DNA of 64,000 nucleotides from an uncultured Acidobacteriota bacterium. GTDB lineage: Bacteria; Acidobacteriota; Thermoanaerobaculia; Multivoradales; UBA5704. The stretch spans positions 1,088,940 to 1,152,939 of the forward strand of contig CAVWLA010000003.1 in assembly GCA_963755825.1 (NCBI GenBank). The letters run 5' to 3'. The translations under genes and the position numbers were made by a program. The notes beneath the pieces were generated by a model. That model searched no databases. It was not told the DNA's origin and saw only the letters and a program-made list of their open reading frames with translations. This document shows positions 1 to 48,571 of the stretch, piece after piece (position 1 is the stretch's first letter; the number at the start of each line of letters is the position of its first letter).

Positions 1-597
1 GGCCGAGAGCCAGGTGAGGATGAGCGGCACCCGCTTGGTGAAGCGATAGTTGAGGAAGGTGCCGGCGCAGACGAGGATGAGCGGCAGCAGCCAGTCGCCG
101 GTGGGATGGAGGTTCTCGGTGAACATGTAGGGCATCGAGATGCCCACCCAGTGGAAGCAGAGAAGGGTGACCGCGATGCCGAAGTTCGAGGGGTTGAGGA
201 AGTGGCGATAGCGGCCGCCGACCTTGAGGCGGAAGACGTACTTCGAGGCGATGGCGACGGCGGCGCCGAAGGCGACCGGCAGGAAGCGTGCGTTGGTGTA
301 GAGGAGCATGCCGACGGCGAGCGCGGTGATGTGGGCGGGGAGGAGGAACTCGACGAAGCCCTTGAAGCCGCCGTCCAGGAAGCGCGGCCGGCGCCCCTCC
401 CGCCAGGCCTCCGCCGACTCGAGGGTCAGCTCGGTCAAATAGGCCGCGGCGAGGGCGACCAGCGGGTGCGCATAGGCCTGCTCGAAGCCGAAGAGGGTGT
501 GACCCAGCACGTTGAAGACCGTGATGGCGGTGGCGAAGCGCCACAGCGCGGCCAGGCGCATGTCCTTCCTGGGAACCTCTGTCTGGATACGCTCCAT
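1..597 (-). CDS. Integral membrane protein, 5' part only; the gene runs off the window start. Possibly UnbU-like, the membrane partner of DUF1702/UnbV proteins.
   Basis: Reverse-strand ORF starts at the ATG whose complement is at 595-597, immediately after the stop of the FG-GAP gene at 600. My translation (MERIQTEVPRKDMRLAALWRFATAITVFNVLGHTLFGFEQAYAHPLVALAAAYL...) is hydrophobic with multiple predicted TM segments. It is not in the ORF track because there is no stop inside the window. Confidence 0.5.
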   Translation of the reverse strand, partial: MERIQTEVPRKDMRLAALWRFATAITVFNVLGHTLFGFEQAYAHPLVALAAAYLTELTLESAEAWREGRRPRFLDGGFKGFVEFLLPAHITALAVGMLLYTNARFLPVAFGAAVAIASKYVFRLKVGGRYRHFLNPSNFGIAVTLLCFHWVGISMPYMFTENLHPTGDWLLPLILVCAGTFLNYRFTKRVPLILTWLSA

Positions 598-599
598 GA

Positions 600-2576
600 T
601 CAACCCTCTCTTCCTTCCTGACCGAGCACCAGCGTGTGCCAGCCGGGCGCGAGGTCGAGCGTCAGATGGTGTACGGCGCCCCGGTCGTCCCGCCAGTGCA
701 CCTCGACGGGGACCTTCGCGGCGCGCAGGTGGCCGAGGCCGAACTGGAGGTCCGGGCTGCGCTTGCCGGAGTGGCCGTTGCCGCCGTCCACCTCGCCGAC
801 CAGGCGGCGGCCGTCCGGCAGGCGGACGTAGGCGGTGGCGCCGATGGCCGGGCGGCTGGGCGGGTCGTTGGCCGGGGTTCCGGCGTGCTCCTCGGTGACG
901 GCGACCTCGCGGCCGCCGACCGGCAACCGCAGGTGGAGGCCGACGAACGCCCCGGTGTTGGGGCTCGTATTGTGGAAGAAGTAGGACGAGTCCCACTGAT
1001 TGGCGACGGCGAAGTCCAGACGGCCGTCGCCATCGACGTCGGCGGTGGCGATGCCGCGGCTGACATGCTTCTCGTCCAGCCCCGCGATGTCGCCGGCGAG
1101 GTCGAAGTACCGCCCGCTCGCCGAGCGCACGAAGAAGGGGCAGCGCACGTGGCCGCTCAGGTCGTCGCCGGGGCGGAAGCGCGGCCAGCTCTGCGGGTTG
1201 TGGAGCGCGCGGTCGTTGGCCATGGCGAGCTCCTGCAGCTCCGGCCAGCGATCGACCGTGCCGCGCACGAAGCCGGTCGCCTGCAGGGCCTCGAGCACGC
1301 CGTCGTTGTTGAAATCGGCCAGGCGCGCCTCCCAGGAGAAGGCGCTGCGCGACAGGCCGAGGTCCTCGCTCTCATCGACGTAGGGGGCGATCCCCTGGCG
1401 CATCTTGCCCTGCTCGCCGGTGCTCAGGTAGGCGAAGTGGCTCTCCTCGAGGGCGAACTCGTTGGCGATGTTGCTCACGTAGATGTCGAGGATGCCGTCG
1501 CCGTTCAGGTCGCCGAAGTCCACTCCCATGCCCTTGAAGGAGTCGTGCCCCACCACCTTGGAGGTCGGGCTGGTGAGGGTCTTCCGCCCCTCGAGACGGG
1601 CGAACTCCAGATGGCCGGGGCGCGAGCGGTTGTGGAGCAGGCGGTCGGGGCCGAAGTCGTTGGCGATGTAGAGCTCGGGGAGCAGGTCGCCGTCGAGGTC
1701 GGCGGCGCCGATCGCCAGGCTCCAGCCGCGCGCCACCTCGCTGTCGAACACCCCCTTCGCCTCGTCGTAGCGCACCGTCGGCTCCCAGCCGGAGGTGCCG
1801 CCGTGGCCGAGGAAGATGTGCTTGAGGCCGCCGTTGTAGGCGCGCGACATGGAGTCCTGCATCTGCTCGGGATGGCGGCTGTCGGCGTCGATGACGCGGG
1901 CGCCGTCCTGGAAGTAGTTGCCGAAGACGAGATCGACGTGGCCGTCGCCGTCGAAGTCGGCCTGGGTGCCGACCGAGGTGTTCCAGAGATCCGGCCGCGG
2001 CAGCAGCTCGACGGCGCGGAACTGGTCCGCCGCCGGGGGTCCCTGCAGCCGGCCGCCGGGGAGAGTGCGGCGCAAGAAGAGGACCGGCGAGCGCCCCCAG
2101 TAGTAGACGAGGAGATCCTCGGCGCCGTCCTCGTTGAAGTCGCCGGCCATGCAGCCGGTGGGGGCCATGGTCTTGACGTCGTAGGGCAGCGGCGCGGCGT
2201 CGAGGACGAAGGGGGCATAGCGGTTGCCGGTGCCGGGAACCGGCGCCACCAGGACCTTGTCGACGCGCGGATCGACGATGCAGGCGTCGTTCGGCAGACC
2301 GTCGCCGTCGACGTCGCTGAGCGAGACCGCGGCGCCGATGGCCGACACCCACGAGGCGAGCTGGTAGAAGCTGGGATTGACCGCGCGGACGTTGCGCCCC
2401 TGTCCGCCGGGCAGCTCGGGCAGCATGGCGCGCTCGAAGCGGAAGCCCGCGGCGAGCGTCTCCCGCTCGGCCGTCGGCAGCGACGGCAGGCGCGCGAAAC
2501 CATAGAGCACGGTGACGATCACGATCGCCAGGAGCAGGGTGAGATTCTTCGCCAGGAAGCCCTCGATCGCCTTCAT
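600..2576 (-). CDS. FG-GAP / ASPIC-UnbV family repeat protein (CRTAC1-like beta-propeller with a C-terminal UnbV_ASPIC-like domain), N-terminal membrane anchor
   Basis: ORF 600..2984 trimmed to the internal Met (MKAIEGFLAKNLTLLLAIVIVTVLYGF = signal/TM). It carries repeated FG-GAP-like DxDGDG motifs (SDVDGDGLPN, ADFDGDGHVDLV, ADLDGDLLPELYIAND, GDLNGDGILDIYV, ADVDGDGRLDFAVAN). The 136 aa upstream of that Met in the ORF are Arg/Gly-rich junk. Confidence 0.8.
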   Translation of the reverse strand: MKAIEGFLAKNLTLLLAIVIVTVLYGFARLPSLPTAERETLAAGFRFERAMLPELPGGQGRNVRAVNPSFYQLASWVSAIGAAVSLSDVDGDGLPNDACIVDPRVDKVLVAPVPGTGNRYAPFVLDAAPLPYDVKTMAPTGCMAGDFNEDGAEDLLVYYWGRSPVLFLRRTLPGGRLQGPPAADQFRAVELLPRPDLWNTSVGTQADFDGDGHVDLVFGNYFQDGARVIDADSRHPEQMQDSMSRAYNGGLKHIFLGHGGTSGWEPTVRYDEAKGVFDSEVARGWSLAIGAADLDGDLLPELYIANDFGPDRLLHNRSRPGHLEFARLEGRKTLTSPTSKVVGHDSFKGMGVDFGDLNGDGILDIYVSNIANEFALEESHFAYLSTGEQGKMRQGIAPYVDESEDLGLSRSAFSWEARLADFNNDGVLEALQATGFVRGTVDRWPELQELAMANDRALHNPQSWPRFRPGDDLSGHVRCPFFVRSASGRYFDLAGDIAGLDEKHVSRGIATADVDGDGRLDFAVANQWDSSYFFHNTSPNTGAFVGLHLRLPVGGREVAVTEEHAGTPANDPPSRPAIGATAYVRLPDGRRLVGEVDGGNGHSGKRSPDLQFGLGHLRAAKVPVEVHWRDDRGAVHHLTLDLAPGWHTLVLGQEGREG

Positions 2577-3535
2577 ACGCTCACCTCGGTGGGGACGAAT
2601 GCCGACTGGATTCGGCGCCGCCAGATCTCGTAGACCGGCACGCCAGGTTGCTGCGGTTCGGAAGGCAGGTCGCGGCCCGCGGCGCGGGCGATCTCGGCGC
2701 AGGCGGCGGCCGATCGCCCGGTGAGGGCGGCGCAGACCATCTCGGTCTCCGGCGTCGGAATGCCGGCGAGGACCCTCGCCTCGGCGGCGAAGGCGACGCC
2801 CTGCGCCAGGTTTGCCGGGAAGGGCGCCGCCTCGCGGGCGAGCGCCTCGATCACCGGGCGGTCGACACCGGCGGCGTAGCAGGAGGCGAGGCCGACGCCG
2901 CTCCACAGGTCGGCGCGGCGCTCCGCCGGGAAGGTCGCGACCGTCCGCGCGATGCGCTCGGGCTCCGCCCCCTCGACGAACCACAGGCAGCGGCCGAGGC
3001 CTTGGTCGAAGGCGCTGCGCTCGTAGCCCTGGAAACGCCGCGGCACGTTCCTTCCGTCGACCGCATCGGCGGGATGGAAGAAGCCTTGGTGGAAGCCATA
3101 GCCGTCGATGGCGAGCATCCAGAGGACCGGCGCCAGCGCCTGGTCGTAGGGATCGAGGAAGCTGGCGGGCAGCCTCGCCATCGCCCAGCCGAGGCCGACG
3201 AGAGACATGTAGATGTGATTCGCCGCGGGGCCGGCGATGAACCGGCGCAGCCGATCGCGGCGCAGCAGGCTGAGACCGTCGAGGAGGGCGAGCGCCATGG
3301 CCGCGCCCTCGTAGGCGAAACCGCGAAAGTCGGGAGAGAGCTGATCGAGCTGCGCGCCGAGGCTGGCGAGATCGGCGGGGTCGTCGAGCGCGGCGTGATA
3401 GCCCTCGAGGAGCGAAGAGCCGATCCGCTCCACCCGCGCCCGGAAGGCGGGGCTGCCGCCGCGAAAGCCGCGCCTCGTGTAGGAGACTTCCTGGGGCGGG
3501 ACCCTGAGAGCGATCTTGAGCAGCTGCCGTTTCAC
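2573..3535 (-). CDS. DUF1702-like protein (enediyne-cluster 'UnbL'-type conserved protein of unknown function)
   Basis: 320-aa ORF with a 4-nt overlap (ATGA) onto the FG-GAP start, so the two are translationally coupled. It is soluble and Ala/Leu-rich. The family assignment is from memory of DUF1702 sequences, not a search. Confidence 0.5.
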   Translation of the reverse strand: MKRQLLKIALRVPPQEVSYTRRGFRGGSPAFRARVERIGSSLLEGYHAALDDPADLASLGAQLDQLSPDFRGFAYEGAAMALALLDGLSLLRRDRLRRFIAGPAANHIYMSLVGLGWAMARLPASFLDPYDQALAPVLWMLAIDGYGFHQGFFHPADAVDGRNVPRRFQGYERSAFDQGLGRCLWFVEGAEPERIARTVATFPAERRADLWSGVGLASCYAAGVDRPVIEALAREAAPFPANLAQGVAFAAEARVLAGIPTPETEMVCAALTGRSAAACAEIARAAGRDLPSEPQQPGVPVYEIWRRRIQSAFVPTEVSV

Positions 3536-3577
3536 CGGAGAGCCCGTCCTCGGCTGCCGCGTCGCAGCTGGGAAGAA

Positions 3578-3617
3578 CCCCCGCTTCCCACCACCGAGGC
3601 GGTGGGAAGCGGGGGGG
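3578..3617 (-). terminator. GC-rich hairpin (13-bp stem CCCGCTTCCCACC / GGTGGGAAGCGGG) about 40 nt downstream of the stop of the 3658..4575 gene; candidate intrinsic terminator
   Basis: The inverted repeat is read directly from the sequence. There is no clear U-tract, which is common in high-GC genomes. Confidence 0.3.
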
Positions 3618-3657
3618 AGGGTGAACGAAAGATCAGAGAGCTTACGACAGAGCCAGC

Positions 3658-4575
3658 TTAGTGATTGGCGGCCACTCTGTAGGAGTTGTCGGACAGCGGG
3701 ACGTGGCGAACCACCTCGCGGAAGTCGACAACACCGTTCTGCAGGACCGCGACCGCGCGGCCATTCGACATCAGGCGCACCGCTTCGGCCGTGATCGAGG
3801 CACGGTGACCGACCGGCGGGATGGTGTCGACGAGCGAGTACCAGAACACCTTGTGCTCGGTCTTCATGTTGAGGTTGAGGTTCGGCATATTGACCGCGAC
3901 GTTGACCGGCGTGGAGCAGTTCTGCATCACCGCGTCGGGGTCAGCCTGGTCGATCGGCTTGGCAGGCGCCTTGGTCTTCGTGGACGACTCGTCCTTGGAG
4001 ACGGGCGACTTCACGTTGTCCTGCTTGCGCGAGCCGATCTTGCCCGGGGCCGCGTCGTTCTTCTCCAGCTTCGCCATCAGCGCGCCGGTGACGAGCTCCG
4101 GGATCTGAATGCGACCGACCTGCCCGTAGGAAGGACGGTCCTTGTCGAGAGCCACGGTGACCGGGCCGAACAGCTTGCTGTCACCACGGAGATCCATGGC
4201 GACGAACTCGGTGTCCAGAACCGCCGTGCCCCACTTGAGCTCCTTCTCGCCCTCGGCCAGATACGGCTGGCCGTGACGAACCGCGATCCAGCCCGAGAGC
4301 TCGACCGTGTCGGTGCCGATACCGTCCACCGAGTAGGTCTCATGGAGCTTCGCCCGCATCACGTCGACACCCGCATTGGGCAGCTCGTACGGACGGATCG
4401 CCACCGGCTGCATCTCGGCGAGGCCCCGCATGCCCATGTGGTTCATGTCGTTGATCACCGAGGCGACCTTCTGCTGATCGGCCGCCGAGTGATCGGCGGA
4501 CGCCGCCGCCAAAGAAACCCAAGCCGCTACACAACCTACGACCACCAACAACGACAACAGCACACGCTTACTCAT
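3658..4575 (-). CDS. Secreted hypothetical protein (signal peptide MSKRVLLSLLVVVGCVAAWVSLAAASA); noticeably lower GC than its neighbours
   Basis: 305-aa ORF with a clean N-terminal signal peptide and no motif I recognise. Codon usage is AT-richer (e.g. atgagtaagcgtgtgctgttgtcgttgttg). It is followed by the hairpin at 3578-3617. Confidence 0.6.
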   Translation of the reverse strand: MSKRVLLSLLVVVGCVAAWVSLAAASADHSAADQQKVASVINDMNHMGMRGLAEMQPVAIRPYELPNAGVDVMRAKLHETYSVDGIGTDTVELSGWIAVRHGQPYLAEGEKELKWGTAVLDTEFVAMDLRGDSKLFGPVTVALDKDRPSYGQVGRIQIPELVTGALMAKLEKNDAAPGKIGSRKQDNVKSPVSKDESSTKTKAPAKPIDQADPDAVMQNCSTPVNVAVNMPNLNLNMKTEHKVFWYSLVDTIPPVGHRASITAEAVRLMSNGRAVAVLQNGVVDFREVVRHVPLSDNSYRVAANH

Positions 4576-5016
4576 AGGATCTCCCTTCCTTCGGGGAAGA
4601 GGTTACCGTGAGACATTTGCCGGGGCCACAGGCGACGGAAATGCCTCACGACACGGATGGAAACAGACACACTTCTGGAAGGCGAAGCTCCGACTGCTCT
4701 CTCACTCTCGTCACCCTCCCAACACGGTCAGGCGTCTTGGTTTCTTGCGACGGAGTATAGCACGCAGAGGGGCCCGTCAAGGGGGCGTCAAATTCATGGA
4801 AGTCACTTTAAGGGTTGAAGATGCGGTCAAGTGACGGTGTGCTCCGACGCTTGACCCGAAGGGTCGCCGGACGTATCATCACGGCCGATTTTCCAGGCTC
4901 CGGAACGGCTCGCAAAGCTGGCGCTCGAGAGGGGGCGAGGCACCTCTCGACGCGCGGCGAAAGGACTCGGGACCGCTGGGCTCGAATCCGCACGACGACG
5001 CCGGTCGAAGCCGCTG
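4576..5016. promoter_or_regulatory. About 440-bp AT-richer divergent intergenic region between the secreted-protein gene (minus) and the ACP/KS operon (plus); likely holds promoters for both
   Basis: No ORF with coding character is present. GC is clearly lower than in flanking coding DNA. I could not identify a convincing -35/-10 pair. Confidence 0.3.
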
Positions 5017-5286
5017 ATGTCGCTAGGATCGGGGCAGGAGAGGAGTGGTGTGGAAAAGAACGGGCTGGCGGGAAAATTGCGCGAAAGGTTGGCTCTGCTT
5101 CTGGAGATCGATCCCTCGGCCATCGCCGACGAGCATCCCTTCGCCGACCTCGGCGTCGACTCGATGATGCGCCTCGAGCTGGTGGCCCTGGTCGAGCAGC
5201 ACGTGGGAGAGGAGATCCCGGAGCGGGACCTGCCCACGATGCAGACGATCGGCGAGGTGATGCGCTACGTCGAGCTCCGTGGCTGA
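5017..5286 (+). CDS. Acyl carrier protein (phosphopantetheine attachment site DLGVDSM). The true start may be GTG 5050, preceded by GGAGAGGAG.
   Basis: The DLGVDSMMRLEL motif equals the ACP Dxx(D)SL helix-II serine motif. Size is 78-89 aa. It is immediately followed by the KS gene. Confidence 0.8.
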   Translation: MSLGSGQERSGVEKNGLAGKLRERLALLLEIDPSAIADEHPFADLGVDSMMRLELVALVEQHVGEEIPERDLPTMQTIGEVMRYVELRG

Positions 5287-6469
5287 GCCGGCGGCCGTCG
5301 CCGTCACCGGCTTCGGAGTCGTCTCCTCGATCGGGGTTGGAGCGGAGAGCTTCTGGGAGGCGGTGCAGGAGGGGCGGACCTCGGCGCGGCCGGTCAGCTC
5401 CTTCGCCACCGCCGGGCTGCGCAATCATTACGGCTGTGAGATCGACGAGTCGCTGCTCGCCGGCGCCGCCCATGCGGCACCGGCCGAGCTGCCGCGCGCC
5501 AGCCGGCTGGCGGCGACCGCGGCGTTGGAGGCGCTCGGCTCGGCCGGCCTCGAGCCCGCCGACGTCGACGGGCTCTACGTCGGCACCACCATGGGCGACC
5601 TCGCCGCCGTCGAGAGCTATCTCGGCCGCGAGGGCACCGCCGCCGGCCGCGAGGCGATCGCCGCGACGCTGGGGGTGCACTTCGGCGAGCGCATCGCGCG
5701 CGCCGTCGGCGTCCAAGGATCCACCCTCACCATCGCCACCTCCTGCTCCGCCGGCAACATCGCCATCTGCCGCGCCGCCGACCTGATCGCCGGCGGCGCC
5801 AAGACGCGGCTCCTCGCCGGCGGCGCCGACGCCTTCTCGTTCCTCGCCTTCATCGGCTTCTCGCGCATGCGCGCCATGGCGCCCGAGCGCTGCACGCCCT
5901 TCGCCGCCGAGCGGCGGGGGATGCTGCTCGGCGAGGGGGCGGCCTTCGTCGTCCTCGAGTCGCTCGCCGCGGCGCGCCGGCGCGGCGCCGCGGTGCATGC
6001 CGTCGTCCTCGGCTACGGCCTCTCCTGCGACGCCCACCACATCGCGACGCCGGAGACCAGCGGCCGCGGCGCCGCGGCCGCCATGACCCGCGCCCTCGAG
6101 CGCTCCGGCCTCGCCCCCGCCGACGTCGACTACGTGAGCGCGCACGGCACCGGCACGCCGGCCAACGATCTCGCCGAGTCGCGCGCCTGCCACGCCGTCT
6201 TCGGCGACCGGCTGCCCTACATCAGCTCGCTCAAGGCCCTCGTCGGCCACTCCCTCGGCGCCGCCAGCGCGCTCGAGGCGGTGGCCTCGGTGATGAGCCT
6301 CCGCGACCAGCGGCTGATCCCCGCCTGGCACCTCGATGCGGTGGACCCCGCCTGCGACGTGCCGCTGCCGCTGCCGGGGAGCGCCGACCTCGGCCGGCCG
6401 ATCGAGGTGATCCTCTCCAACGCCTTCGCCTTCGGGGGAAACAACTCGTGCCTGGCCCTGCGGCGCTGA
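5279..6469 (+). CDS. Beta-ketoacyl-ACP synthase (KS-alpha-like, condensing enzyme)
   Basis: The Cys-His-His triad is present: active-site Cys in IATSCSAGNIAI, His in SAHGTGTP, His in LVGHSLGAAS. It starts at GTG and overlaps the ACP stop. Confidence 0.9.
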   Translation: MAEPAAVAVTGFGVVSSIGVGAESFWEAVQEGRTSARPVSSFATAGLRNHYGCEIDESLLAGAAHAAPAELPRASRLAATAALEALGSAGLEPADVDGLYVGTTMGDLAAVESYLGREGTAAGREAIAATLGVHFGERIARAVGVQGSTLTIATSCSAGNIAICRAADLIAGGAKTRLLAGGADAFSFLAFIGFSRMRAMAPERCTPFAAERRGMLLGEGAAFVVLESLAAARRRGAAVHAVVLGYGLSCDAHHIATPETSGRGAAAAMTRALERSGLAPADVDYVSAHGTGTPANDLAESRACHAVFGDRLPYISSLKALVGHSLGAASALEAVASVMSLRDQRLIPAWHLDAVDPACDVPLPLPGSADLGRPIEVILSNAFAFGGNNSCLALRR

Positions 6470-7446
6470 CGACGTCGCCGCCCGCCGGCCGCTCGTCCAC
6501 CCAGGCGTGGCCGTCGCACGTCGTGGTGACCGGCTTCGGCGCCGCCCTGGAAGGCGAGCTGCCGGTGCCGCCGGCGCTGGCGGACCTGGTGACCCGGCTG
6601 CCGGTCGCCGGCATGGACCGCTCGATCGTCGACCGCTCGCCGGCCGCCGCGGCGCTCATCGCCGCCATCGCCCGTGCCATCGCCCACCCGCGCGCCGGCC
6701 GCCTGCCGCCGCCCGAGGAGCGGGCGATCGTCGTCGGCACCGGCGCGGCGGCGCTCAACGAGGTCATCTGCTTCCTGAACGAGACCCTGGAGGTCGGCCC
6801 CAACCTGGTCAACCCCGGCCTCTTCCCGTTCACCGTCATCAACGCCGCGGCCGGCATCGCCGCCATCGAGCACTGCTTTCGGGGACCCAACCTGACGCTC
6901 AGCAACGGCGGCACCTCGGCGCTCGAAGCGATCGCCTACGCGGCCGATCTGGTCGCCTCCGGGCAGGCCACGGTGGCGCTCGCCGGCGGTTTCGAGGGCT
7001 TGAGCGCGCGCGTCGGCGAGGCCCTCGCCCGCACCGGCCCGCCGGTCTCCATCGCCGCGGTGTGGATGGTGACCACCCGCGAGCACGCCGCGGCGATGGG
7101 CGGCCTCCCCGCGGCGCGCATCCTCGCCTTCGGCGCCGGCGAATGGCCGGAGCTCGAGCCGGCCGCGGCGGCGGCGGAGATGGCGCGGACGGTGGTGGCA
7201 GCGGCCTCGGCGCTCGCCGGCGGCGCCGGCGCGGCGCCGCTCCTCGCCGCGGCCAGCCCCGAGCTCGGCCTCCTCGCCCTCATCGGCGCCGTCGAGCGGC
7301 TGGCGAGCGGCGAGCTGTCGGCAGAGCAGTCCGGAGCGCGGTCCGAAGATCAGCCGGCCCACCTCCTGCCGGTGGTCGCCGCCGGAGAGTCCCGCGGCAG
7401 CGCGGCGGCCCTGGCGCTGGCGCCGGCCGGAAGCGGGCGGCCGTGA
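6448..7446 (+). CDS. KS-like protein lacking the active-site Cys (chain-length-factor / KS-beta-like partner)
   Basis: It has a thiolase-fold N-terminus (HVVVTGFGAAL). At the position of the KS Cys it reads LSNGGTSALEAI, so Cys is replaced by Gly. It overlaps the KS gene by 22 nt and the DH gene by 4 nt. Confidence 0.75.
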   Translation: MPGPAALTTSPPAGRSSTQAWPSHVVVTGFGAALEGELPVPPALADLVTRLPVAGMDRSIVDRSPAAAALIAAIARAIAHPRAGRLPPPEERAIVVGTGAAALNEVICFLNETLEVGPNLVNPGLFPFTVINAAAGIAAIEHCFRGPNLTLSNGGTSALEAIAYAADLVASGQATVALAGGFEGLSARVGEALARTGPPVSIAAVWMVTTREHAAAMGGLPAARILAFGAGEWPELEPAAAAAEMARTVVAAASALAGGAGAAPLLAAASPELGLLALIGAVERLASGELSAEQSGARSEDQPAHLLPVVAAGESRGSAAALALAPAGSGRP

Positions 7447-7895
7447 CCGGCCGCGAGCTCATCGCGCTCCTGCCGCATCGGCCGCCCATGCTGCTGCTCG
7501 AGGATGCCGAGACGGAGGGCGACCGCGCTCTCGTCGCCCACCAGACGATCGCCGCCGAGAGCCCCTTCCTGGCCGGCCACTTCCCGGATTTCCCGGTCTG
7601 GCCCGGCGCCCTCCTCCTCGAGGCGATGGCGCAGACCACGGCGATCTACCTCCTCAGCACCCGCGACGGCCTCCGCGAGGGCGAGGTCCCGGTGCTCGGC
7701 GCCGTCGACTGCCGCTTTCTCCACCCGGTCTTCCCCGGCGACCGCATCGAATATCGCTCCGAGCTGGTGCGCCGCATCGGCGACCTCGGGCTCTTCCAGG
7801 TGACCGCGAGCCGCGGCGGCGAGGTGGTGGCGCGCGGGCGATTTTCGGCCGGACTCACCCAGCGCTCCGGTCTGACCGCTAAGATCTCGCCGTAG
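7443..7895 (+). CDS. 3-hydroxyacyl-ACP dehydratase, FabZ/FabA-like hotdog fold
   Basis: LPHRPPMLLLED...AGHFPDFPVWPGALLLEAMAQT matches the FabZ catalytic-His motif. GTG start overlaps the CLF stop (GTGA). Confidence 0.85.
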   Translation: MTGRELIALLPHRPPMLLLEDAETEGDRALVAHQTIAAESPFLAGHFPDFPVWPGALLLEAMAQTTAIYLLSTRDGLREGEVPVLGAVDCRFLHPVFPGDRIEYRSELVRRIGDLGLFQVTASRGGEVVARGRFSAGLTQRSGLTAKISP

Positions 7896-8642
7896 ATGCT
7901 CTTCAGCGGACAGCGGGCCCTGGTGGTCGGCGCCAGCGGCGCCATCGGTCGCGCCGTCGCCGAGGATCTCCTCGCCCAGGGCTGCGACGTCGCCCTCACC
8001 TTCCACCGCCACAGCGACCTCTCGGCGCAGCTCGTCGCCCAGGCCGAGACGCTCGGCCGGCGCTGTTTCGCCTACGCCCTCGACGTGCGCGATCCCGCCG
8101 CCGTCGCCGCGATCTGCCAGCGCGCCGCCGACGACCTCGGCGCGCCGCCCTCGCTCCTCGTCAACACCGCCGGCATCCTCCGCGACCGGCCGCTCGGCCA
8201 GCTCGAGCCGGACGACTGGCGCGACGTCCTGGAGACCAACCTCTTCGGCGCCTTCTACCTGATCCGCCAGGTGGCGCCCTTCATGATGCATCACGGCGGC
8301 GGCCGGATCGTCAGCGTCGCCTCGGTCTCCGGGCTCTTCGGCCAGCCGGGGCAGGCGAACTACGCGGCGTCCAAGGGCGGCGTCATCGCCATGACCCGCG
8401 CCCTGGCGCGCGAGCTGGGGCCGCTCGGCATCACCGTCAACGCGGTGGCGCCGGGCCTCGTCGACACCGAGATGACCTCGTCGCTCTCGGCGGTCGTCAA
8501 GCGCCAGTTCCTGCAGCGCATCCCGCTGCGCCGCTTCGCCACCCCGGCGGACATCGTGCCGGTGGTGCGCCTGCTGCTCTCCGCCGAGGCGAGCTACATC
8601 ACCGGCCAGGTGCTGGTGGTCGACGGCGGCCTGACCTGCTGA
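7896..8642 (+). CDS. 3-oxoacyl-ACP reductase (FabG-like SDR)
   Basis: Rossmann motif GASGAIGRAV, NAG motif, catalytic YAASKGG (YxxxK). 248 aa. Confidence 0.9.
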   Translation: MLFSGQRALVVGASGAIGRAVAEDLLAQGCDVALTFHRHSDLSAQLVAQAETLGRRCFAYALDVRDPAAVAAICQRAADDLGAPPSLLVNTAGILRDRPLGQLEPDDWRDVLETNLFGAFYLIRQVAPFMMHHGGGRIVSVASVSGLFGQPGQANYAASKGGVIAMTRALARELGPLGITVNAVAPGLVDTEMTSSLSAVVKRQFLQRIPLRRFATPADIVPVVRLLLSAEASYITGQVLVVDGGLTC

Positions 8643-8656: not shown

Positions 8657-9958
8657 ATGGAACGACGCGTCGCCATCACCGGCATCGGCATGCTGAACGC
8701 CGCCGGCGCCGGCATCGATGCCATCTGGGAGCGGCTGCGCAGCGATCCGCCGCGGCCGGTGGAGTTCGCCGGAGCGCCGCCCACCGAGGGCATCCGCTTC
8801 CCCGTCTACCGGGCGGTCGACTACCGCCTCGCCGAGCTGCCGGTGCCGGCGCGCTGCCGGCGCTGGCTGGCCGAGGAGGGGCTCGAGCACCTCGTCGACC
8901 TCCGCCACCTGATCGGCGCCACGGCTCTCGCCCTCGACGACGCCGGCCTCGCCCCCCACCACGGCGGGGAGGAGCCGCCGGTCGCCGTCGTCGTCGCCGA
9001 CGAGAGCCCGGGATTCGACGCCCTCAGCCAGGCCCTCTTCGAGCTCGGACTCGAGGCGCCGGTGCCTGCCGAGCCGGCGGCGCGCTACGCTCATCTCGCG
9101 GGCCACTTCTTCCAGCTCAACAGCTTCCTCCTCCCCCACTACCTCGCCCGCGCCTTCGGTTTCGAGGGGCTGTCGCTGTTCGTCAACTCCGCCTGCACCT
9201 CGGGCTTGAACGCCCTCGAGATCGCGGCGCAGGAGATCCGCTCCGGCCGCTCGCTCGTCGCCCTCGCCGCCGCCGCCGACGATCCGCTCTCCGCCGCCAA
9301 GTTCCTCTGGTTCCACTCGCTCGGGCTCTACTCGACGGCGGGGACCCTGCGCCCGTTCGACGCCGAGCCGGCCGGCACGGTGTTCGGCGACGGCGGCGCC
9401 GCTCTCGTCCTCGAGGACCTGGAGAGCGCCCGCCGCCGCGGCGCGCGGATCTACGGCGAGCTCCTCGGCTGCGGCTTCGCGCAGGACGGCTGGAAGATCA
9501 CCGTGCCGCAGCCGACGCGCGCCCTCGCCGCCAAGGCGATCGAGCGGGCGCTCGCCGCCGGCCGGGTCGAGGCGGCGGCGGTCGATCTGGTCGTTCCCCA
9601 CGGCGTCGGCACCGCCGCCTCGGACGGCTACGAGGCGCTCGTCCTCCACCAGATCTTCGCGCCGCTGCCGCGCTGGCCGGCGGTGACCGCCTTCAAGCCG
9701 ATGATCGGTCACAACCTGGGCGGCGCCGCGCTGATGGAGATCGGCCTTCTGCTGGCGGCGATGTGGCACGGCTCCATCCCGCCGACCCTCGGTCACCGGC
9801 TGCCGCCGAAACGCCACCCGCTGCCGCTCGTCACCCGCTGGACGGAGCGGAGCGTCGAGCTGGCGGTCAAGCTCACCTGCGGCTTCGCCGGCTACTTCGG
9901 CGCCGCGGTCTTCCGGCGCCACGGCGGCGGCGCCGGCCAGGGAGCGGAATCGCCATGA
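8657..9958 (+). CDS. Beta-ketoacyl-ACP synthase (second KS)
   Basis: VAITGIGMLNAAG start, active-site Cys in NSACTSGLNALE, His in VPHGVGTAASD, His in MIGHNLGGAALME. Confidence 0.9.
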   Translation: MERRVAITGIGMLNAAGAGIDAIWERLRSDPPRPVEFAGAPPTEGIRFPVYRAVDYRLAELPVPARCRRWLAEEGLEHLVDLRHLIGATALALDDAGLAPHHGGEEPPVAVVVADESPGFDALSQALFELGLEAPVPAEPAARYAHLAGHFFQLNSFLLPHYLARAFGFEGLSLFVNSACTSGLNALEIAAQEIRSGRSLVALAAAADDPLSAAKFLWFHSLGLYSTAGTLRPFDAEPAGTVFGDGGAALVLEDLESARRRGARIYGELLGCGFAQDGWKITVPQPTRALAAKAIERALAAGRVEAAAVDLVVPHGVGTAASDGYEALVLHQIFAPLPRWPAVTAFKPMIGHNLGGAALMEIGLLLAAMWHGSIPPTLGHRLPPKRHPLPLVTRWTERSVELAVKLTCGFAGYFGAAVFRRHGGGAGQGAESP

Positions 9959-11103
9959 GAGACGCTGACAATCCGGTCGACCGGCTGATCGACGCGAGCT
10001 ACCTCGAGACCTCGCGGCGGGCGACGGACTACGTCGCCGCGCTGAGCGTCGGCATCCTCCGCGAGCTGGGGCTCTGGAACGCCGCGGACCTCGAGCAGCC
10101 GCGCACGGCGGGCGAGTGGATGACCGCGCTCGCCGTCGTCGAGGAGCTCGGCATCGCCTTCGCCTGGCTGCTCGAGGAGGGTCGGCGCCTCGGCGCCCTG
10201 GGCGTCGCGCCCGGCGGCGGCTCGCAGGCGCCGGCCGGGCCGCTCTACGCGCCCGCCGCGCCGGCGGTCGCCGAGGAGATCGTCGGCGGCCTGGCGGCGC
10301 TCCGCGACCGGGCGATCGGCTCGGGCTCGTCGCTCGAGATGTTCGACTACGTCGCCTCGCGCTACGTCGACTTCCTGCGCGGCCAGCGCTCGGGAAACGC
10401 CATCCTCTACAAGGGTGCGGCCCTCGAGGTGACCTGCCGCTACTACTCGGCGGCCAACCCGCTCTACGACGTCCACAACCAGCTCGGCTGGCTGGGCGTC
10501 GAGGCGGCCCTCGCCCGGCTCGGGCGCCCGGCGCGCCTGCTCGAGGTGGGCGCCGGCACCGGCGGCGCCACCGAGGCGGTGCTGCGCGGCCTGGCGGCGG
10601 GCGCGCCCGCCGCGGGCGGCAGCCTCGTCGTCACCGACATCTCTCCCTCGTTCGCGCTCGGCACCGTCGAGCGCCTGGCGAGCGGCGGCGCGCTGCCGAT
10701 CCCCCTCGAGCACCGCAAGCTCGACTTCACCCGCCCGCCGCTCGAGCAGGGCGTGGCGCCCGGCAGCGTCGACGTGATCCTGGCGGTCAACGCCCTCCAC
10801 AACGCCGGCGATCCCGTCGCCGCGCTCGCCAACCTGCGCTCCTACCTGGCGCCCGACGGCTCTCTGGTCGTCTCCGAGTCGATCTGCGACCCCGGCGCCC
10901 ACGTGCACCAGGAGTTCGTCTTCAACCTGCTGCCGTACGCCCCGCGCGGCCGCTTCCGCGCCGAGCCGCCGACCTCGCGCTTCCTCTCCGCCGCGGCGTG
11001 GGGAGAGATCCTCGGCGAGGCAGGGTACGGCGGCGAGGTGCGGCGCAACGGCGAGGGGCCGCAGCTGGCGCTCCTCGCCATCGCGCGGCCCGGCGGCCTC
11101 TGA
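9955..11103 (+). CDS. Class I SAM-dependent methyltransferase
   Basis: Motif I LLEVGAGTGGATEAV and motif II VDVILAVNALH. ATG at 9955 overlaps the KS2 stop (ATGA). The ORF-track start at 9763 would overlap KS2 extensively, so I trimmed it. Confidence 0.8.
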   Translation: MRDADNPVDRLIDASYLETSRRATDYVAALSVGILRELGLWNAADLEQPRTAGEWMTALAVVEELGIAFAWLLEEGRRLGALGVAPGGGSQAPAGPLYAPAAPAVAEEIVGGLAALRDRAIGSGSSLEMFDYVASRYVDFLRGQRSGNAILYKGAALEVTCRYYSAANPLYDVHNQLGWLGVEAALARLGRPARLLEVGAGTGGATEAVLRGLAAGAPAAGGSLVVTDISPSFALGTVERLASGGALPIPLEHRKLDFTRPPLEQGVAPGSVDVILAVNALHNAGDPVAALANLRSYLAPDGSLVVSESICDPGAHVHQEFVFNLLPYAPRGRFRAEPPTSRFLSAAAWGEILGEAGYGGEVRRNGEGPQLALLAIARPGGL

Positions 11104-11106
11104 CCG

Positions 11107-11127
11107 CGGATCGAGCGGCCGCCGCTC
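11107..11127. terminator. Palindrome GAGCGGCCGCCGCTC in the 22-bp gap between the convergent methyltransferase and LolA-like genes; candidate bidirectional terminator
   Basis: Inverted repeat read from the sequence. It overlaps the LolA-like stop codon. Confidence 0.25.
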
Positions 11128-12019
11128 AGGGGCCGCTGCGCACCAGGAGACCGCTCGCGACCCACGCGGTCCAGCGGTCGGCGACCGTCGGCAGCATGGC
11201 GGGCTCGAAGAGCTGTGGCCCGATGGCGGCGGGCAGCGCGCCGATGTCCCTCAAGGTGAGCACCGAGGAGCGGCCGCCGGCGAGGAGCATGGTCATCCTG
11301 AGCGGCGTCCACGACGTCCCCACCTGCCTGAACGCATCGATGCGGAGCTGCTTCTCGGGCGCTCCCGCCGCCTGGCGGAAGAAGTCGGCGCCGAGGATGA
11401 GCTGGCGGTCGGCGCTGAGGTAATAGCGAACGCGGGACCAGGCGGTGCTCTCGGCGACCGCCGGCGTCGCCGGCACGGCGTCGACCATCCACACCTCGCG
11501 GCCGCGCAGCAGGGTCTTCCCCGCCAGCGTCAGGCGGCGGCCGGCGGCCAGGCGCCAGCGCAGGTCGGTGTAGCTGAAGTCGGACCCCAGGAGCCCCTCC
11601 TCGAAGCGGCCCGGGGTGATCGTCAGCACCTGCCGGAGGCCGACCGGGAGGCGCATGTAGAGGGTCATGCCGGTCGGCACTTTCGGGTCCTCGTCGAGCA
11701 GATAGCTGGTGCCGCGCAGGCCGGCGGGCTGCTCGAGCACCACCAGGGAGCGCAGCTGATCGCCGATCGGGCGCCAGAAGTGGAGCACCGTGAAGGTGCG
11801 GGTGACCGTCGCGCCCGACTTGAGCTCGAGGTAGACCCGCCGCCAGCCGGGGCTGCCGAAGTCGCGGGCGTTGTAGGCGCGGACGAGCCCCGCGGCGTCC
11901 GCGGCGGCTGCCGGGGGAACGGCGGCGGTGGCGGCACGGGCTGCGGCGGCCGTCACCTCGGAACGGGTTCCGGCGACCGCCGCCAGCGCCAGCAGGGCGG
12001 CGAGGCATCTGGCTCTCAT
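11126..12019 (-). CDS. LolA-like outer-membrane lipoprotein carrier/sorting protein (signal peptide)
   Basis: 297 aa with N-terminal signal MRARCLAALLALAAVAG and a predicted beta-rich mature protein. It sits directly downstream of, and overlaps, the MMPL exporter gene, which is the LolA+MMPL pairing typical of aryl-polyene type clusters. The fold assignment comes from that context and my recollection of the family. Confidence 0.55.
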   Translation of the reverse strand: MRARCLAALLALAAVAGTRSEVTAAAARAATAAVPPAAAADAAGLVRAYNARDFGSPGWRRVYLELKSGATVTRTFTVLHFWRPIGDQLRSLVVLEQPAGLRGTSYLLDEDPKVPTGMTLYMRLPVGLRQVLTITPGRFEEGLLGSDFSYTDLRWRLAAGRRLTLAGKTLLRGREVWMVDAVPATPAVAESTAWSRVRYYLSADRQLILGADFFRQAAGAPEKQLRIDAFRQVGTSWTPLRMTMLLAGGRSSVLTLRDIGALPAAIGPQLFEPAMLPTVADRWTAWVASGLLVRSGP

Positions 12020-14328
12020 GGGTTCTCCCGGCGCAGGAAGGCGCAGCTCGGCACGACGAGGAGGGTGAGCGCCGCGCAGAGCGCCATGGCGAAGCAGACC
12101 AGGATGCCGAGCTCGCGGTTGGGCGGCACCACCGAGAAGCAGAGGACGGAGAAGCCGCTGACGATGGCGATCGTGCTGGCGAGGATCGCCGGCCCGGTCA
12201 TCACGTAGGCCTCGAGCATCGCCTCCCCGTCGCTCTTCGCCCGGCGGCGGACCTGGTATTGGGCCACCAGGTGGATGGCATAGTCGATGCCGATGCCGAG
12301 CGCGATGCTGGCGAACATCGAGTTCGCCGTGCCCAGCGGCACGCCGAGCGCCGCCAGGGTCCCCAGCACCAGCAGCACGCTCACCGCCACCGGCAGCACC
12401 GACATCAGCGCCGCGCGCAGCGAGCGGAAGAGGGCGAGCGTCAGCAGCAGGTCGAAGGCGAGGGCGAAGCCGATCGAGCGCGCCTGCCCGACCACCAGCG
12501 AGCGCACCGCCAGGTAGCCGATCCAGCCGTCGCCGAACGGCACCACGTGGGCGCCCTCGCCGAGCACCTGCTGCGCCGAGCGCTCGGCGAGCTCGAGCAC
12601 CTCGCGGATGCGCGAGTAGTTGGCGCCGCGGACGAAGACCAGCAGGTGGGCGTAGCGCGCCTCGCCGTCGAGCCGGCGGGCGCTGGAGAGCCGCATCGCC
12701 GAGCTGATGAGCACCACCGCCTGCTCGATCTCCTGCTGCGACAGCGAGCGCGTCCCCTGCTTGAGCTCGCGCCGGTAGGTCCGATAGTCGACGCGGGAGA
12801 GCGCCGCGGCGACGCGCACGACGTCGCCATACGGGCTCATCGTGGCGCCCACCCAGGGGCTGGCGGCCAGCCGGTCCTCGATCTCGCCGATCCCCCGGAG
12901 CGCTCCCGGCGCCAGGAAGCCGTCGCGGCCGCCGCTGTCGATCATCAGGTCGAGGGTGTTGGTGCCGGCGAGCAGCCGGTTGATGGCGCGATCCCCCCGC
13001 ACCGTCTCGCTCGCGGCGGGGAGGTTCCCCACCCAGTTGTCCTCGATCTTCAGGCGGGTGACGGCGAGGGCGAGCGCCGGGAGGGCGAAGAGGGCGACGG
13101 CGGCGAGCGCTCTCCCCGCCCCGCCGCCCGCCAGCCGCCGCGCGAACGACTCGAGGCCGCGCTCGGCGACGCGGGTGAACGGGCTGTCGCCGGGCTTCAG
13201 CTGGGGATCGATGAGCACCAGGAGGGCGGGGAGGAGGGTGAAGGTGAAGACCACCGAGAAGAAGACCGAGAGCGCGCCGTAGGTGCCGAAGATGCGCTGC
13301 GGCTCGAGCTTCACCACCGCCAGCGAGAGCAGCCCGGCGAGGGTCGCCGCCGCGGTGACGCGGATGGCCGGGATGACGAAGGAGAAGGCGACCAGGGCGG
13401 TCTCCGCCACCGGCCTCTGCGGTTGGCGGCGCGACTCGACGCAGAAGCGGTTGAGCGCGTAGACGTCGTCGGTGACGCCGATGACGATGAGGATGACCGG
13501 CAGAGTCAGAGTGGTGATGAAGACCGACTCGCCGCGGAGCCCCATCAGACCGAGCGTCCAGAGCAGGCTGACGCCGACCTCGATGAGCGAGGCGAGCGGC
13601 GGGATGGGATGCGCGAGGACGAGGCTCATCACCACGATGAGGACGACGATGACGATGGGGACCAGCCAGGCGAGGTCGTGCGCCGAGGTCACCCCGAGGG
13701 CCGCCTGCGCCATCACCGTGCCGCTCGAATAGAGGGGGAGGCCGCGGCGGCGATAGCGCGCCACCAGGCGGTCGATGCGAAGCCCGAGCTCGGCGCGGTC
13801 GGCCGCCGGCTCGACCTCGGCGTAGATGGCCGCCGCCCGCCCGTCGCGGGTCACCAGGATGCCGTCGTCGAGGCCGGTTTCGGCGGTCTCCCGCCGCAGC
13901 TGCCGCGCCATCCGCTCGTCGGCGGCGGCGCCGCGGGCGAGGAGCGCGCGCAGGTCGAGGTTGTCGCCCTCGAGCGAGAAGTGAGGCACGGTGGCGAGGC
14001 TGCTCACCGACTCCGGCAGGATCCCCTCGGTGGCGGCGAGGTCGCGGCTCAGCTCCTGCACCAGCCGCAGGGCGTCCGGCGTGAAGATCCCGCGGCCGCC
14101 GCCGGCTCCCCCGCCGTCGATACCGAGGACGACGACGTCGTTGAGGCCGAAGCGGCGCGCGGCGGAGTCGCTGGCGCGCATCTCGGGGGCGCCCTGCGGG
14201 ATGAGCGCGCGGGCGTCGAGCCGCAGGCGGACGCGGGGGATCGCGCAGCAGGCGAGGACCGTCAACAGCGCGGCGATGGCGACGATCAGCCGCGGATGGC
14301 GGACCGAGAAACGGAGGAGAAAGTGCAT
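12016..14328 (-). CDS. MMPL-family RND exporter (lipid/pigment exporter, ApeM/HpnN-like)
   Basis: Trimmed from the 1402-aa ORF to Met MHFLLRFSVRHPRLIVAIAALLTVL. It has two 6-TM bundles separated by periplasmic loops and ends ...VVPSCAFLRRENP. About 770 aa. Confidence 0.85.
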   Translation of the reverse strand: MHFLLRFSVRHPRLIVAIAALLTVLACCAIPRVRLRLDARALIPQGAPEMRASDSAARRFGLNDVVVLGIDGGGAGGGRGIFTPDALRLVQELSRDLAATEGILPESVSSLATVPHFSLEGDNLDLRALLARGAAADERMARQLRRETAETGLDDGILVTRDGRAAAIYAEVEPAADRAELGLRIDRLVARYRRRGLPLYSSGTVMAQAALGVTSAHDLAWLVPIVIVVLIVVMSLVLAHPIPPLASLIEVGVSLLWTLGLMGLRGESVFITTLTLPVILIVIGVTDDVYALNRFCVESRRQPQRPVAETALVAFSFVIPAIRVTAAATLAGLLSLAVVKLEPQRIFGTYGALSVFFSVVFTFTLLPALLVLIDPQLKPGDSPFTRVAERGLESFARRLAGGGAGRALAAVALFALPALALAVTRLKIEDNWVGNLPAASETVRGDRAINRLLAGTNTLDLMIDSGGRDGFLAPGALRGIGEIEDRLAASPWVGATMSPYGDVVRVAAALSRVDYRTYRRELKQGTRSLSQQEIEQAVVLISSAMRLSSARRLDGEARYAHLLVFVRGANYSRIREVLELAERSAQQVLGEGAHVVPFGDGWIGYLAVRSLVVGQARSIGFALAFDLLLTLALFRSLRAALMSVLPVAVSVLLVLGTLAALGVPLGTANSMFASIALGIGIDYAIHLVAQYQVRRRAKSDGEAMLEAYVMTGPAILASTIAIVSGFSVLCFSVVPPNRELGILVCFAMALCAALTLLVVPSCAFLRRENP

Positions 14329-14372
14329 CGAGAGGAGGGCCTCAGGCGGCGGGCGCTCCGGGAGGACAGCCG

Positions 14373-30899: not shown

Positions 30900-31615
30900 G
30901 CGAGCCCGGCGACACCGAGCCCTCGCGCGGGGCGGCCGCCGCGAGCGGCCTCGTGGCGCGGGAGGTCACCAAGAGCTTCGCCTTCGGCGATCGGGAGATC
31001 GCGGTCCTCCGCGGCATTTCCCTGGCACTCGCGCCGGCCGAGTCGCTCGCCATCCTCGGTCCCTCCGGCTCGGGCAAGAGCACCCTCCTCCACATCCTGG
31101 GGACGCTCGAGCGCCCCACCTCCGGGCGGGTGTCGCTCGCCGGGCAGGACCTCGGCTCGCTGCGCGAGCCGGAGCTCGCCCGCTTCCGCAACCAGCGGAT
31201 CGGCCTCGTCTTCCAGGACCACCACCTGCTCCCCCAGCACTCGGTGCTCGAGAACGTGCTGCTGCCGACGCTCGCCTTCCATCGCGGCTGGCGCGAGGCT
31301 CGGCCGCGCGCCGTCGAGCTCCTCCAGCGGGTCGGCCTCGGCGATCGGCTGCATCACCGGCCGGCCGAGCTCTCGGGAGGCGAGCGGCAGCGGGCGGCGA
31401 TCGCCCGCGCCCTCCTCCACCGCCCCGCTCTCCTCCTCTGCGACGAGCCGACGGGCAGCCTCGACCACGCCGCCGCCGAGGCGGTGATCGACCTCCTGCA
31501 CGAGCTTCGCCGCGAGGAGGGCGCCATCCTCGTCGCCGCCACCCACAGCCTCGAGCTCGCCGCCCGCTTCGGGCGCCGTGCGACCCTGCGTGACGGGCTG
31601 TGCTTCGCAGCCTGA
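30896..31615 (+). CDS. ABC transporter ATP-binding protein (LolD/MacB-type)
   Basis: Walker A GPSGSGKST, signature LSGGERQR, Walker B LLLCDEPTGSLD, H-loop ATHS. ATGA overlap with the GT4 gene. Confidence 0.9.
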   Translation: MSEPGDTEPSRGAAAASGLVAREVTKSFAFGDREIAVLRGISLALAPAESLAILGPSGSGKSTLLHILGTLERPTSGRVSLAGQDLGSLREPELARFRNQRIGLVFQDHHLLPQHSVLENVLLPTLAFHRGWREARPRAVELLQRVGLGDRLHHRPAELSGGERQRAAIARALLHRPALLLCDEPTGSLDHAAAEAVIDLLHELRREEGAILVAATHSLELAARFGRRATLRDGLCFAA

Positions 31616-38953: not shown

Positions 38954-39038
38954 CGATTCATCGCGGTGAGCACTCCGCCCCCCGAGCTCCTCCCCGGAAT
39001 CCCGATCGAGATCGCCGGCCGGCGGCCCGAGTCGGGCC

Positions 39039-48548: not shown

Positions 48549-48571
48549 TCCTCTCTCCTCGCGACCGCCGC

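Follow-up and report, generated by a model that had tools for sequence, protein, structure and literature searches.

The polyketide synthase (PKS) cassette of enediyne gene clusters is defined as E3/E4/E5/E/E10 (PMC5181780, PMC4480864), in which E3, E4 and E5 are "three unique enediyne biosynthesis proteins" that act together with the enediyne PKS (PKSE) and its thioesterase (PMC10760148). A survey in which each cassette gene alone served as the query retrieved essentially the same set of clusters (PMC4480864), and enediyne-type ketosynthase (KS) domains are widespread outside the Actinobacteria, where their products are unknown (PMC10308959). Here we describe homologs of E3, E4 and E5 in a stretch of 64,000 nucleotides (the window) from an uncultured Acidobacteriota bacterium (GenBank assembly GCA_963755825.1, contig CAVWLA010000003.1, positions 1,088,940 to 1,152,939). 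Their genes form a unit with a fourth gene, for a DynF-like protein, and this unit is divergent from an operon for a discrete type-II synthase. The four genes, which run from position 4575 to 1 and beyond, make up one operon. We lean towards the explanation that this operon is an offshoot of the enediyne "warhead" cassette that does without a PKSE and is fed by an aryl-polyene-like type-II synthase.

From the five-gene cassette, Gui et al. 2024 reportedly obtained an iodoheptaene, a diiodotetrayne and pentaynes. No part of enediyne biosynthesis is less well understood than E3, E4 and E5, which are regarded as a hallmark of the cassette and serve as probes for it. Aryl polyene (APE) clusters (Cimermancic 2014, Schoner 2016, Grammbitter 2019) are another known system with which the locus can be compared.

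The window has about 72% G+C, and coding frames are recognisable by a G+C content of at least 0.9 at third codon positions (GC3). The frames of the Unb genes are intact and translationally coupled and have coding-type GC3 values of 0.89-0.95. The ATG of E4 overlaps the stop codon of E3 (ATGA), and the start of E5 lies 2 nt past the stop codon of E4 (TGAtcATG). We take UNBL, UNBV and UNBU to be the older names of E3, E4 and E5, after Zazopoulos et al. 2003 and the Pfam name UnbV_ASPIC. An earlier reading of the window, made from the letters alone (the sequence-only reading), had proposed that the three coupled minus-strand genes are homologs of UnbL, UnbV and UnbU, and the open reading frames (ORFs), their junctions, the Pfam matches and the names of the UnbU/E5 homologs all agree with it.

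The gene unbL/E3 (2573..3535, minus strand) encodes a soluble all-alpha repeat protein of 320 amino acids, in which no hydrophobic segment was detected. Its proposed placement in DUF1702 is borne out by a match to the full profile of PF08012 (E=4.5e-101, 338 bits against a cut-off of 25), with residues 4-313 aligned to profile positions 4-319 of 319. The protein also carries every one of the 48 columns that are invariant in an alignment of 25 family sequences, of which it is itself one. The AlphaFold model, with a predicted local distance difference test score (pLDDT) of 94 and a predicted template modelling score (pTM) of 0.92, consists of all-alpha repeats. A Foldseek search of the Protein Data Bank (PDB) with this model found no similar fold (best E=0.38, template modelling score (TM) 0.24), and the sequence gave no meaningful match in the PDB either, so that the model offers no clue to the mechanism.

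The next gene, unbV/E4 (600..2576, minus strand), encodes a membrane-anchored FG-GAP/UnbV_ASPIC beta-propeller of 658 amino acids. Its Pfam matches, all of them above cut-off, are to FG-GAP_3 (PF13517, 8e-25), to FG-GAP (PF01839, 3e-17) and, in the profile search that the sequence-only reading had suggested, to UnbV_ASPIC (PF07593, 4e-11, 43 bits against a cut-off of 23.4). A single hydrophobic anchor lies near the N-terminus (residues 12-30), and the protein is predicted to face the periplasm.

The gene unbU/E5 (1..597, minus strand) is cut by the left end of the window, so that the window holds the first 199 residues of a polytopic membrane protein that is 313 residues long and has at least seven hydrophobic segments; the remainder lies to the left. 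The 199-residue fragment has no match in Pfam or NCBIfam. It is 100% identical to P0123, a full-length protein of 313 amino acids from the same 3,077,836-bp contig, the homologs of which are labelled "enediyne biosynthesis protein UnbU" (NCBI) or "E5" (JGI), and more than 100 cassettes have, in the E5 position, a gene with 45-75% identity to it. From these names and identities it follows that the membrane protein is UnbU, as the sequence-only reading had supposed, and not an unrelated transporter. Many E5 homologs carry PF03116 (RnfD/NqrB), and the E5 of locus L016 reaches 38 bits against a cut-off of 27.7. P0123 is without a precomputed Pfam match and has a weak TIGR01946 score (19 bits against a cut-off of 207). 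The E5 family profile matches RnfD (8ahx_D) weakly (E=0.06), and FYMVSDPSTTP is aligned with FFIATDPVTSP. Judged by sequence, E5 appears to be distantly related to RnfD/NqrB, a relationship that looks well founded for the family as a whole and tenuous for the protein of the window. Genes for further Rnf or Nqr subunits do not occur in the vicinity. The segment SDPSTTP was considered as a flavinylation site and then dropped; it does not fit the flavinylation pattern, which is Dxx(s/t)gA(T/S), and it aligns with a different conserved RnfD motif (TDPVTSP). Above curated cut-offs, NCBIfam gave nothing for the Unb trio or for the type-II proteins.

The sequence-only reading missed a fourth member of the unit. 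DUF6073 (3658..4575, minus strand) is the first gene of the four and encodes a probably exported, DynF-like beta-barrel of 305 amino acids, with a signal-like segment at residues 5-23. The protein matches PF19550 with E=2e-24; the family is small (256 proteins at E <=1e-3). Its AlphaFold model (pLDDT 81, with a disordered insert of about 45 residues at 175-212) matches DynF (6ubl_A) in Foldseek with E=3e-12, a probability of 1.00 and a TM of 0.52 for the query and 0.74 for the target, which is far above every other solved structure. The family profile also finds the DynF sequence (E=1.9e-13, in two aligned stretches), while the identity amounts to only 18%. By profile and predicted fold, DUF6073 is thus taken to be a homolog of DynF, the lipid-binding protein of the dynemicin enediyne cluster, and by analogy it is probably a lipid- or polyene-binding protein. 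DynF itself is an eight-stranded barrel, which was crystallised with palmitate and proposed to bind the polyene precursor (heptaene); Sgd15, the orthologue of DynF, is essential for early steps (PMC8725005). The gene lies directly upstream of DUF1702 in the window and in the related loci L083, L085 and L086; in the few PKSE-type loci that have it, it is located after the PKSE. In two PKSE-type cassettes, proteins of about 250 amino acids with a PEP-CTERM sorting motif are encoded directly upstream of E3 (L037 9225-9950, L070 9001-9777), in the position that DUF6073 has in the window and its closest relatives; they do not match the DUF6073 profile.

The usual setting of such genes was obtained from a DUF1702-alignment scan over one genome per GTDB species. 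The scan gave at least 80 loci, with 53% identity for the best match listed, from Acidobacteriota, Planctomycetota, Cyanobacteria, Verrucomicrobiota, Bacteroidota and Proteobacteria. In most of them E3, E4 and E5 are followed by an overlapping ORF, or one spaced by a few bases, of 1900-2000 amino acids with an N-terminal KS. Locus L016 shows the canonical five-gene cassette, in which E3-E4-E5 precede a protein of 1936 amino acids with KS, acyltransferase, acyl carrier protein (ACP), ketoreductase (KR) and dehydratase (DH) domains and then a 4HBT_2 thioesterase of 147 amino acids. A PKSE-type KS directly follows E5 in 109 of 120 assessable loci; its start is no more than about 1.5 kb away from that of E5, and it mostly overlaps the E5 stop or lies at most 30 nt from it. 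A scan of JGI metagenomes with an E5 alignment likewise gave mostly PKSE-type cassettes, together with only two short contigs of the clade described below.

Other arrangements were also seen. A second, unrelated group of E3-E4-E5 trios without an adjacent PKSE occurs in L077, L079 and L069 (Schlesneria, Pirellula); in L079, a 4HBT_2 thioesterase-like protein of 326 amino acids and an AraC regulator follow unbU, and the vicinity also encodes a discrete FabF-like KS as well as a transposase. The loci L001/L082 (Multivoradales), L003, L010, L039, L046 and L063 have further cassette layouts. In some of these a PKSE-type gene stands directly before or after DUF1702 with no E4/E5 between them; such loci often contain MMPL genes and a UnbV-like gene on the opposite strand, and in one of the genomes a second DUF1702 copy lies about 20 kb from the first.

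The window does not share the canonical layout. A tblastn search of the 64 kb with a 1936-residue PKSE and its thioesterase revealed neither a PKSE nor E10, and found only two discrete KS genes with 28% identity. The sequence-only reading had stated that no PKSE and no E3/E4/E5/E10 companions are present. This stands for the PKSE and E10; for the remaining three it contradicts itself, since UnbL/V/U are E3/E4/E5 and hence present. Its further claim, that the trio occurs without a PKSE, could not be established from the window alone, because unbU is truncated. The position downstream of unbU, the usual site of the PKSE, lies outside the window, as unbU runs off at position 1.

Trees were constructed by neighbour-joining with 100 bootstraps for E5 and for E4. 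The E5 tree places the window in a clade with L083-L088, L167 and L168, and the E4 tree places it with L083-L086 and L167; both clades have a support of 100/100. The nearest E5 homologs are 68-75% identical over the 199-residue fragment of the window.

A PKSE after unbU is missing from all assessable members of this clade. Searches of the clade loci with the L016 PKSE and E10 thioesterase found discrete KS genes only, and no PKSE or E10. No PKSE follows E5 in 6 of 6 assessable clade loci, compared with 5 of 114 others (Fisher p=1.3e-7), and type-II genes (ACP, KS, chain-length factor (CLF), DH, KR) lie no more than 10 kb away in 4 of the 7 clade loci, the window included, compared with 0 of 109 PKSE-type loci (Fisher p=4.9e-6); both tests ignore phylogenetic non-independence and therefore overstate the independence of the loci. 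The neighbourhood survey for APE-like clusters that the sequence-only reading had called for thus turned up co-occurrence in the clade (4/7) and none in the PKSE-type loci (0/109). Its suggestion of a general lipid or polyene role gains from this linkage and from the DynF-like neighbor; the word "general" finds no support, as the family is overwhelmingly linked to the PKSE and the exception is one derived clade.

The closest relative, L083, repeats the layout of the window. One strand carries KR-DH-CLF-KS-ACP, which are 75, 80, 64, 79 and 77% identical to those of the window, plus genes for a GT87 protein and a beta-propeller; the other strand carries DUF6073-DUF1702-UnbV-UnbU (65, 67, 78 and 75% identical), with no PKSE after them. 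In L083 two UnbV-like propeller paralogues follow unbU (10951-15005), and a matching pair follows DUF6073 in L170 (11010-15046). The paralogues have about 570 and 770 amino acids and are about 30% identical to E4; such a pair may also lie just left of the window. In L084 the ACP gene is directly divergent from UnbV-UnbU, which are followed by a methyltransferase. L085 and L086 have DUF6073-DUF1702-UnbV-UnbU and then UDP-glucose dehydrogenase, epimerase, MacB-type permease and glyoxalase genes, and in L086 ACP-KS-CLF lie 8 kb downstream. In L167 and L168, UnbV-UnbU stand alone, the gene after E5 is on the opposite strand, and no KS is nearby.

These relatives bear on a simpler explanation, in which the trio is the front part of an ordinary E3-E4-E5-PKSE-E10 cassette, the PKSE of which would be found immediately to the left of position 1, while the type-II operon would be a neighbor with no relation to it. 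This was the initial working hypothesis. It draws on the facts that unbU is cut at position 1 while the contig extends at least 342 nt further, and that a PKSE-type KS comes right after E5 in most related loci (the 109 of 120 given above). Yet E4 and E5 of the window fall into a clade with 100% bootstrap support in which the PKSE is missing from this position in every assessable locus, and the nearest relative, L083 (E4 78%, E5 75%, same flanks), has the two UnbV paralogues there. The closest relatives and the bootstrapped trees together overturned the hypothesis, and we now regard such an artefact of the window edge as improbable.

The operon on the other side is separated from the Unb operon by a divergent intergenic region of 441 nt (4576..5016). 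A sigma-70-like site (4851-4879, plus strand, 10/12 matches) lies upstream of the ACP gene; terminator-like sites were not found in 1-5400. The plus strand then encodes an ACP (5017..5286, PP-binding, 5e-15); a KS (5279..6469), which by domain match and active-site residues (Cys-His-His) is predicted to be active; and a CLF-like KS partner (6448..7446), which is inactive, with Cys replaced by Gly, both His missing and a short C-terminus. These are followed by a FabA/FabZ-like DH (7443..7895, domain match), a FabG-like KR (7896..8642), a second KS (8657..9958) with Cys-His-His residues, a KS domain match and a divergent N-terminus, and an S-adenosylmethionine (SAM)-dependent methyltransferase (9955..11103; Methyltransf_12, Methyltransf_23 and Methyltransf_11). 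The KR matches 3-oxoacyl-ACP reductase models, and the model of the flexirubin short-chain dehydrogenase/reductase FlxB stays below cut-off. The neighbors are therefore indeed a type-II KS/CLF system, as the sequence-only reading had recognised.

The ACP is 77, 71 and 55% identical to the ACPs of L083, L084 and L086, and the first KS is 79% identical to the KS of L083 and 68% to that of L086. The nearest solved structures of this KS are 9s5h_B (E=1.8e-81) and then 6kxd_A (E=4.4e-67), ahead of FabF; those of the CLF are 9s5h_C (2.5e-15) and 6kxd_B (2.3e-11), again ahead of FabF. The L083 DH, which is 80% identical to the DH of the window, has ApeP-like and ApeI-like Pfam matches. From its list of parts, the type-II operon looks like an aryl-polyene-like synthase without an aryl-starter enzyme. 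The divergent arrangement of Unb and type-II genes recurs in L083 and L084.

Two export genes follow on the minus strand. They encode a LolA-like periplasmic lipid carrier (11126..12019, PF17131, 1.5e-19) and an MMPL/RND-type lipid exporter (12016..14328, domain match); the start of the former overlaps the stop of the latter, and the longer ORF of the LolA-like gene shows a signal-like N-terminus. Homologs of the LolA-like gene adjoin PKSE-type cassettes in L110, L140, L142 and L161. MMPL homologs are present in 14 of the 109 PKSE-type loci; in L016 (591 bits) and L035, for instance, the gene immediately precedes E3. The gene order in L110 is E3-E4-E5-PKSE-DUF6073-LolA-MMPL. The frequency of MMPL and the layout of L110 mean that the export pair accompanies the Unb proteins with either kind of synthase. 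Beyond it lie two tandem paralogues of a DHOR-type di-haem oxidoreductase (14373..18135, minus strand), one of them with an EF-hand-like motif. A DHOR pair with 74-75% identity is found near DUF6073 and the two UnbV paralogues in L170, and a copy with 63-64% identity lies 3.5 kb from unbU in L084; the two genes may belong to the system, although this is uncertain.

The linkage between the two operons can also be explained by coincidental, syntenic adjacency. In that case E4-E5, with or without E3 and the DynF-like protein, would act on some other envelope lipid or glycolipid, or with a distant PKSE, and the type-II operon would make an independent aryl-polyene-like pigment. Several observations favor this explanation and weigh against the offshoot that we prefer. 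In two clade loci, L167 and L168, E4-E5 occur but a KS was not found within reach, and L084 and L167 are without E3 and DUF6073, so that the conserved core is E4-E5 only. The members of the clade are rather closely related, and synteny with their loci extends over much of the 64-kb window; many genes of the window up to 58 kb away have homologs there, and part of the type-II linkage may come from shared ancestry, which can explain proximity, rather than from selection. Envelope-glycan genes abound in the clade neighborhoods (UDP-glucose dehydrogenase, epimerases, MacB/FtsX, PMT_2, sulfatase, formyltransferase), as would suit a function that has nothing to do with polyketides, and LolA and MMPL are standard in aryl-polyene clusters. 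The limit of the Fisher tests counts on the same side, as does the weakness of the RnfD relationship for the window E5. Furthermore, for the source genome the absence of a PKSE after unbU is what the relatives suggest, and a PKSE elsewhere on the 3.08-Mb contig could act in trans.

Against coincidence stands the fact that the linkage persists in four layouts (the window, L083, L084 and L086). In L084 the ACP gene is still directly divergent from E4 after the loss of E3 and DUF6073. Type-II genes, moreover, are found in none of the PKSE-type loci, and in L110 the DynF-like, LolA and MMPL genes also follow a PKSE. The only known role of all four Unb/DynF proteins is the processing of a synthase-made polyene (PMC10760148, PMC8725005). 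We consider a coincidental neighborhood a serious rival, although less likely than the offshoot.

It could further be argued that the Unb genes are decaying, non-functional leftovers after the loss of the PKSE. Retention was measured at those positions for which conservation in PKSE-linked proteins reaches at least 95%. The number kept in the clade is 55/70 for E3, 160/172 for E4 (93%) and 85/93 for E5 (91%). The lower value of E3, and the absence of E3 and DUF6073 from some clade loci such as L084 and L167, are what one would cite in favor of decay. On the other hand, the window E3 keeps every invariant column of its family, and E4 and E5 keep nearly all of their conserved positions. The frames are intact and coupled with the GC3 of coding sequence, and the E4-E5 pair is retained across relatives that have diverged to 62-78% identity. 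Taken together, we judge decay to be very improbable; the conserved positions suggest that the activity of E3/E4/E5 is probably kept in the clade.

The offshoot of the enediyne cassette that we prefer would then have arisen by loss of the PKSE and E10 in this lineage. The supply of a conjugated polyene would have been taken over by the divergent, highly reducing type-II synthase (ACP, KS/CLF, DH, KR, second KS, methyltransferase). What the data show are the gene identities, the operon, the PKSE-less clade and the linkage of this clade to a type-II synthase; as to substrate, chemistry (polyene to alkyne-bearing envelope lipid), topology and destination of the product, we infer the following course. 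The ACP-bound polyene would be passed to the cytoplasmic E3 and the RnfD-like membrane protein E5. At the inner membrane or across it, the chain would undergo the same oxidative tailoring as in enediyne cassettes, in which the periplasmic propeller E4 would take part. In the cassettes of actinomycetes, E3/E4/E5 are said to convert the heptaene-type chain of the PKSE to polyynes, as Gui et al. 2024 reportedly found. The hydrophobic chain may be held or chaperoned by the exported DynF-like barrel, and the lipid product could be moved to the outer membrane by the LolA-like carrier and the MMPL pump.

A bolder version of this course, which we put forward only tentatively and with some doubt, is that E3/E4/E5 and the DynF-like carrier form a synthase-agnostic machine, which might accept any conjugated polyene that an ACP delivers and make alkyne-bearing chains (polyyne or ene-yne) from it. 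Within the acidobacterial lineage of the window, the machine would have been re-plumbed from a type-I PKSE to an aryl-polyene-like type-II synthase and would make a polyyne-type outer-membrane lipid. If true, enediyne-cassette chemistry would have its first type-II route, and a toolkit thought to serve antibiotics only would have a function in the Gram-negative envelope.

The PKSE-less clade, if true, would show that E3/E4/E5 are not tied to one synthase, and discrete enzymes with a free-standing ACP would then allow a dissection of substrate and chemistry that is hard with a 1900-residue PKSE that phosphopantetheinylates itself. The recurrent company of LolA-like and MMPL genes, in PKSE-type and PKSE-less loci, points to a role in envelope lipids in Acidobacteriota, Planctomycetota and other phyla. 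For genome mining it means that matches to E3/E4/E5 alone do not mark an enediyne cluster. Among the searchable papers we found no description of the Unb/type-II arrangement and none that links aryl-polyene or type-II systems with enediyne genes; a search for DUF1702 and UnbL/V/U found nothing relevant.

The remainder of the window contains other groups of genes. A set for formylated or aminated sugars, which resembles the Arn pathway of lipid A modification, lies at 51332-58074 and also spans 37196-42094. It includes GT2, methyltransferase, 4,6-dehydratase/epimerase, DegT aminotransferase, UDP-GlcNAc 2-epimerase, formyltransferase and PIG-L deacetylase genes, and two PMT_2 (ArnT-like) transferases with a sulfatase at 37-42 kb (37196-42094). 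Homologs of several of these genes adjoin UnbV-UnbU or DUF6073 in L167, L168 and L170. Seven PQQ_2 (BamB-like) beta-propeller paralogues occur at 18514-22226, 24869-26167, 35972-37168 and 47244-51335, and their homologs are found within the Unb neighborhoods of L083, L086 and L170. An FtsX-permease-domain protein of 1151 amino acids (31600-35055) is encoded directly after an ABC ATPase gene; with 79% G+C it marks the maximum of the window. A HemN-like radical SAM gene (23785-24846) and a flavin-dependent halogenase-like gene (28321-29592) flank a TonB-dependent receptor gene. The halogenase-like gene lies 25 kb from the Unb trio and is of possible interest, given that intermediates of the enediyne cassette are reported to be iodinated.

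Compared with the enediyne cassette, the window has E3, E4 (with its N-terminal anchor) and E5 in the same order, coupled and with most conserved residues kept. It differs in that the PKSE and the E10 hotdog thioesterase are missing, here and in the six assessable clade relatives, in that a discrete type-II synthase stands alongside, and in its Gram-negative cell-envelope setting. DynF (PDB 6ubl), from the dynemicin cluster of Micromonospora chersina, is matched by DUF6073 in profile and predicted fold. DynF, a chain of 211 residues, was produced in soluble form in E. coli, whereas the protein of the window carries a signal-like N-terminal segment along with a disordered insert and is probably periplasmic.

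With the APE clusters the window shares an ACP, a KS with a CLF-like partner, a second KS, a FabZ-like DH, a FabG-like KR and a methyltransferase, together with the LolA-like carrier and the MMPL exporter. It differs in several respects. A search of 4.6-14.3 kb, which was not exhaustive, found none of the APE starter genes (AMP-binding or ApeH-like adenylation, ammonia lyase or chorismate-derived supply), nor was a thioesterase, acyltransferase or glycosyltransferase seen there; a GT1 gene lies 15 kb away, outside this type-II region. The type-II proteins have no family-level NCBIfam match above cut-off, and we know of no Unb or DynF genes in APE clusters. The structure 6kxd is the polyene-forming ishigamide pair Iga11/Iga12. 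The closest likeness in sequence is to such highly reducing type-II KS/CLF heterodimers (9s5h chains B and C, 6kxd chains A and B), in which the KS and the CLF of the window each match a different chain.

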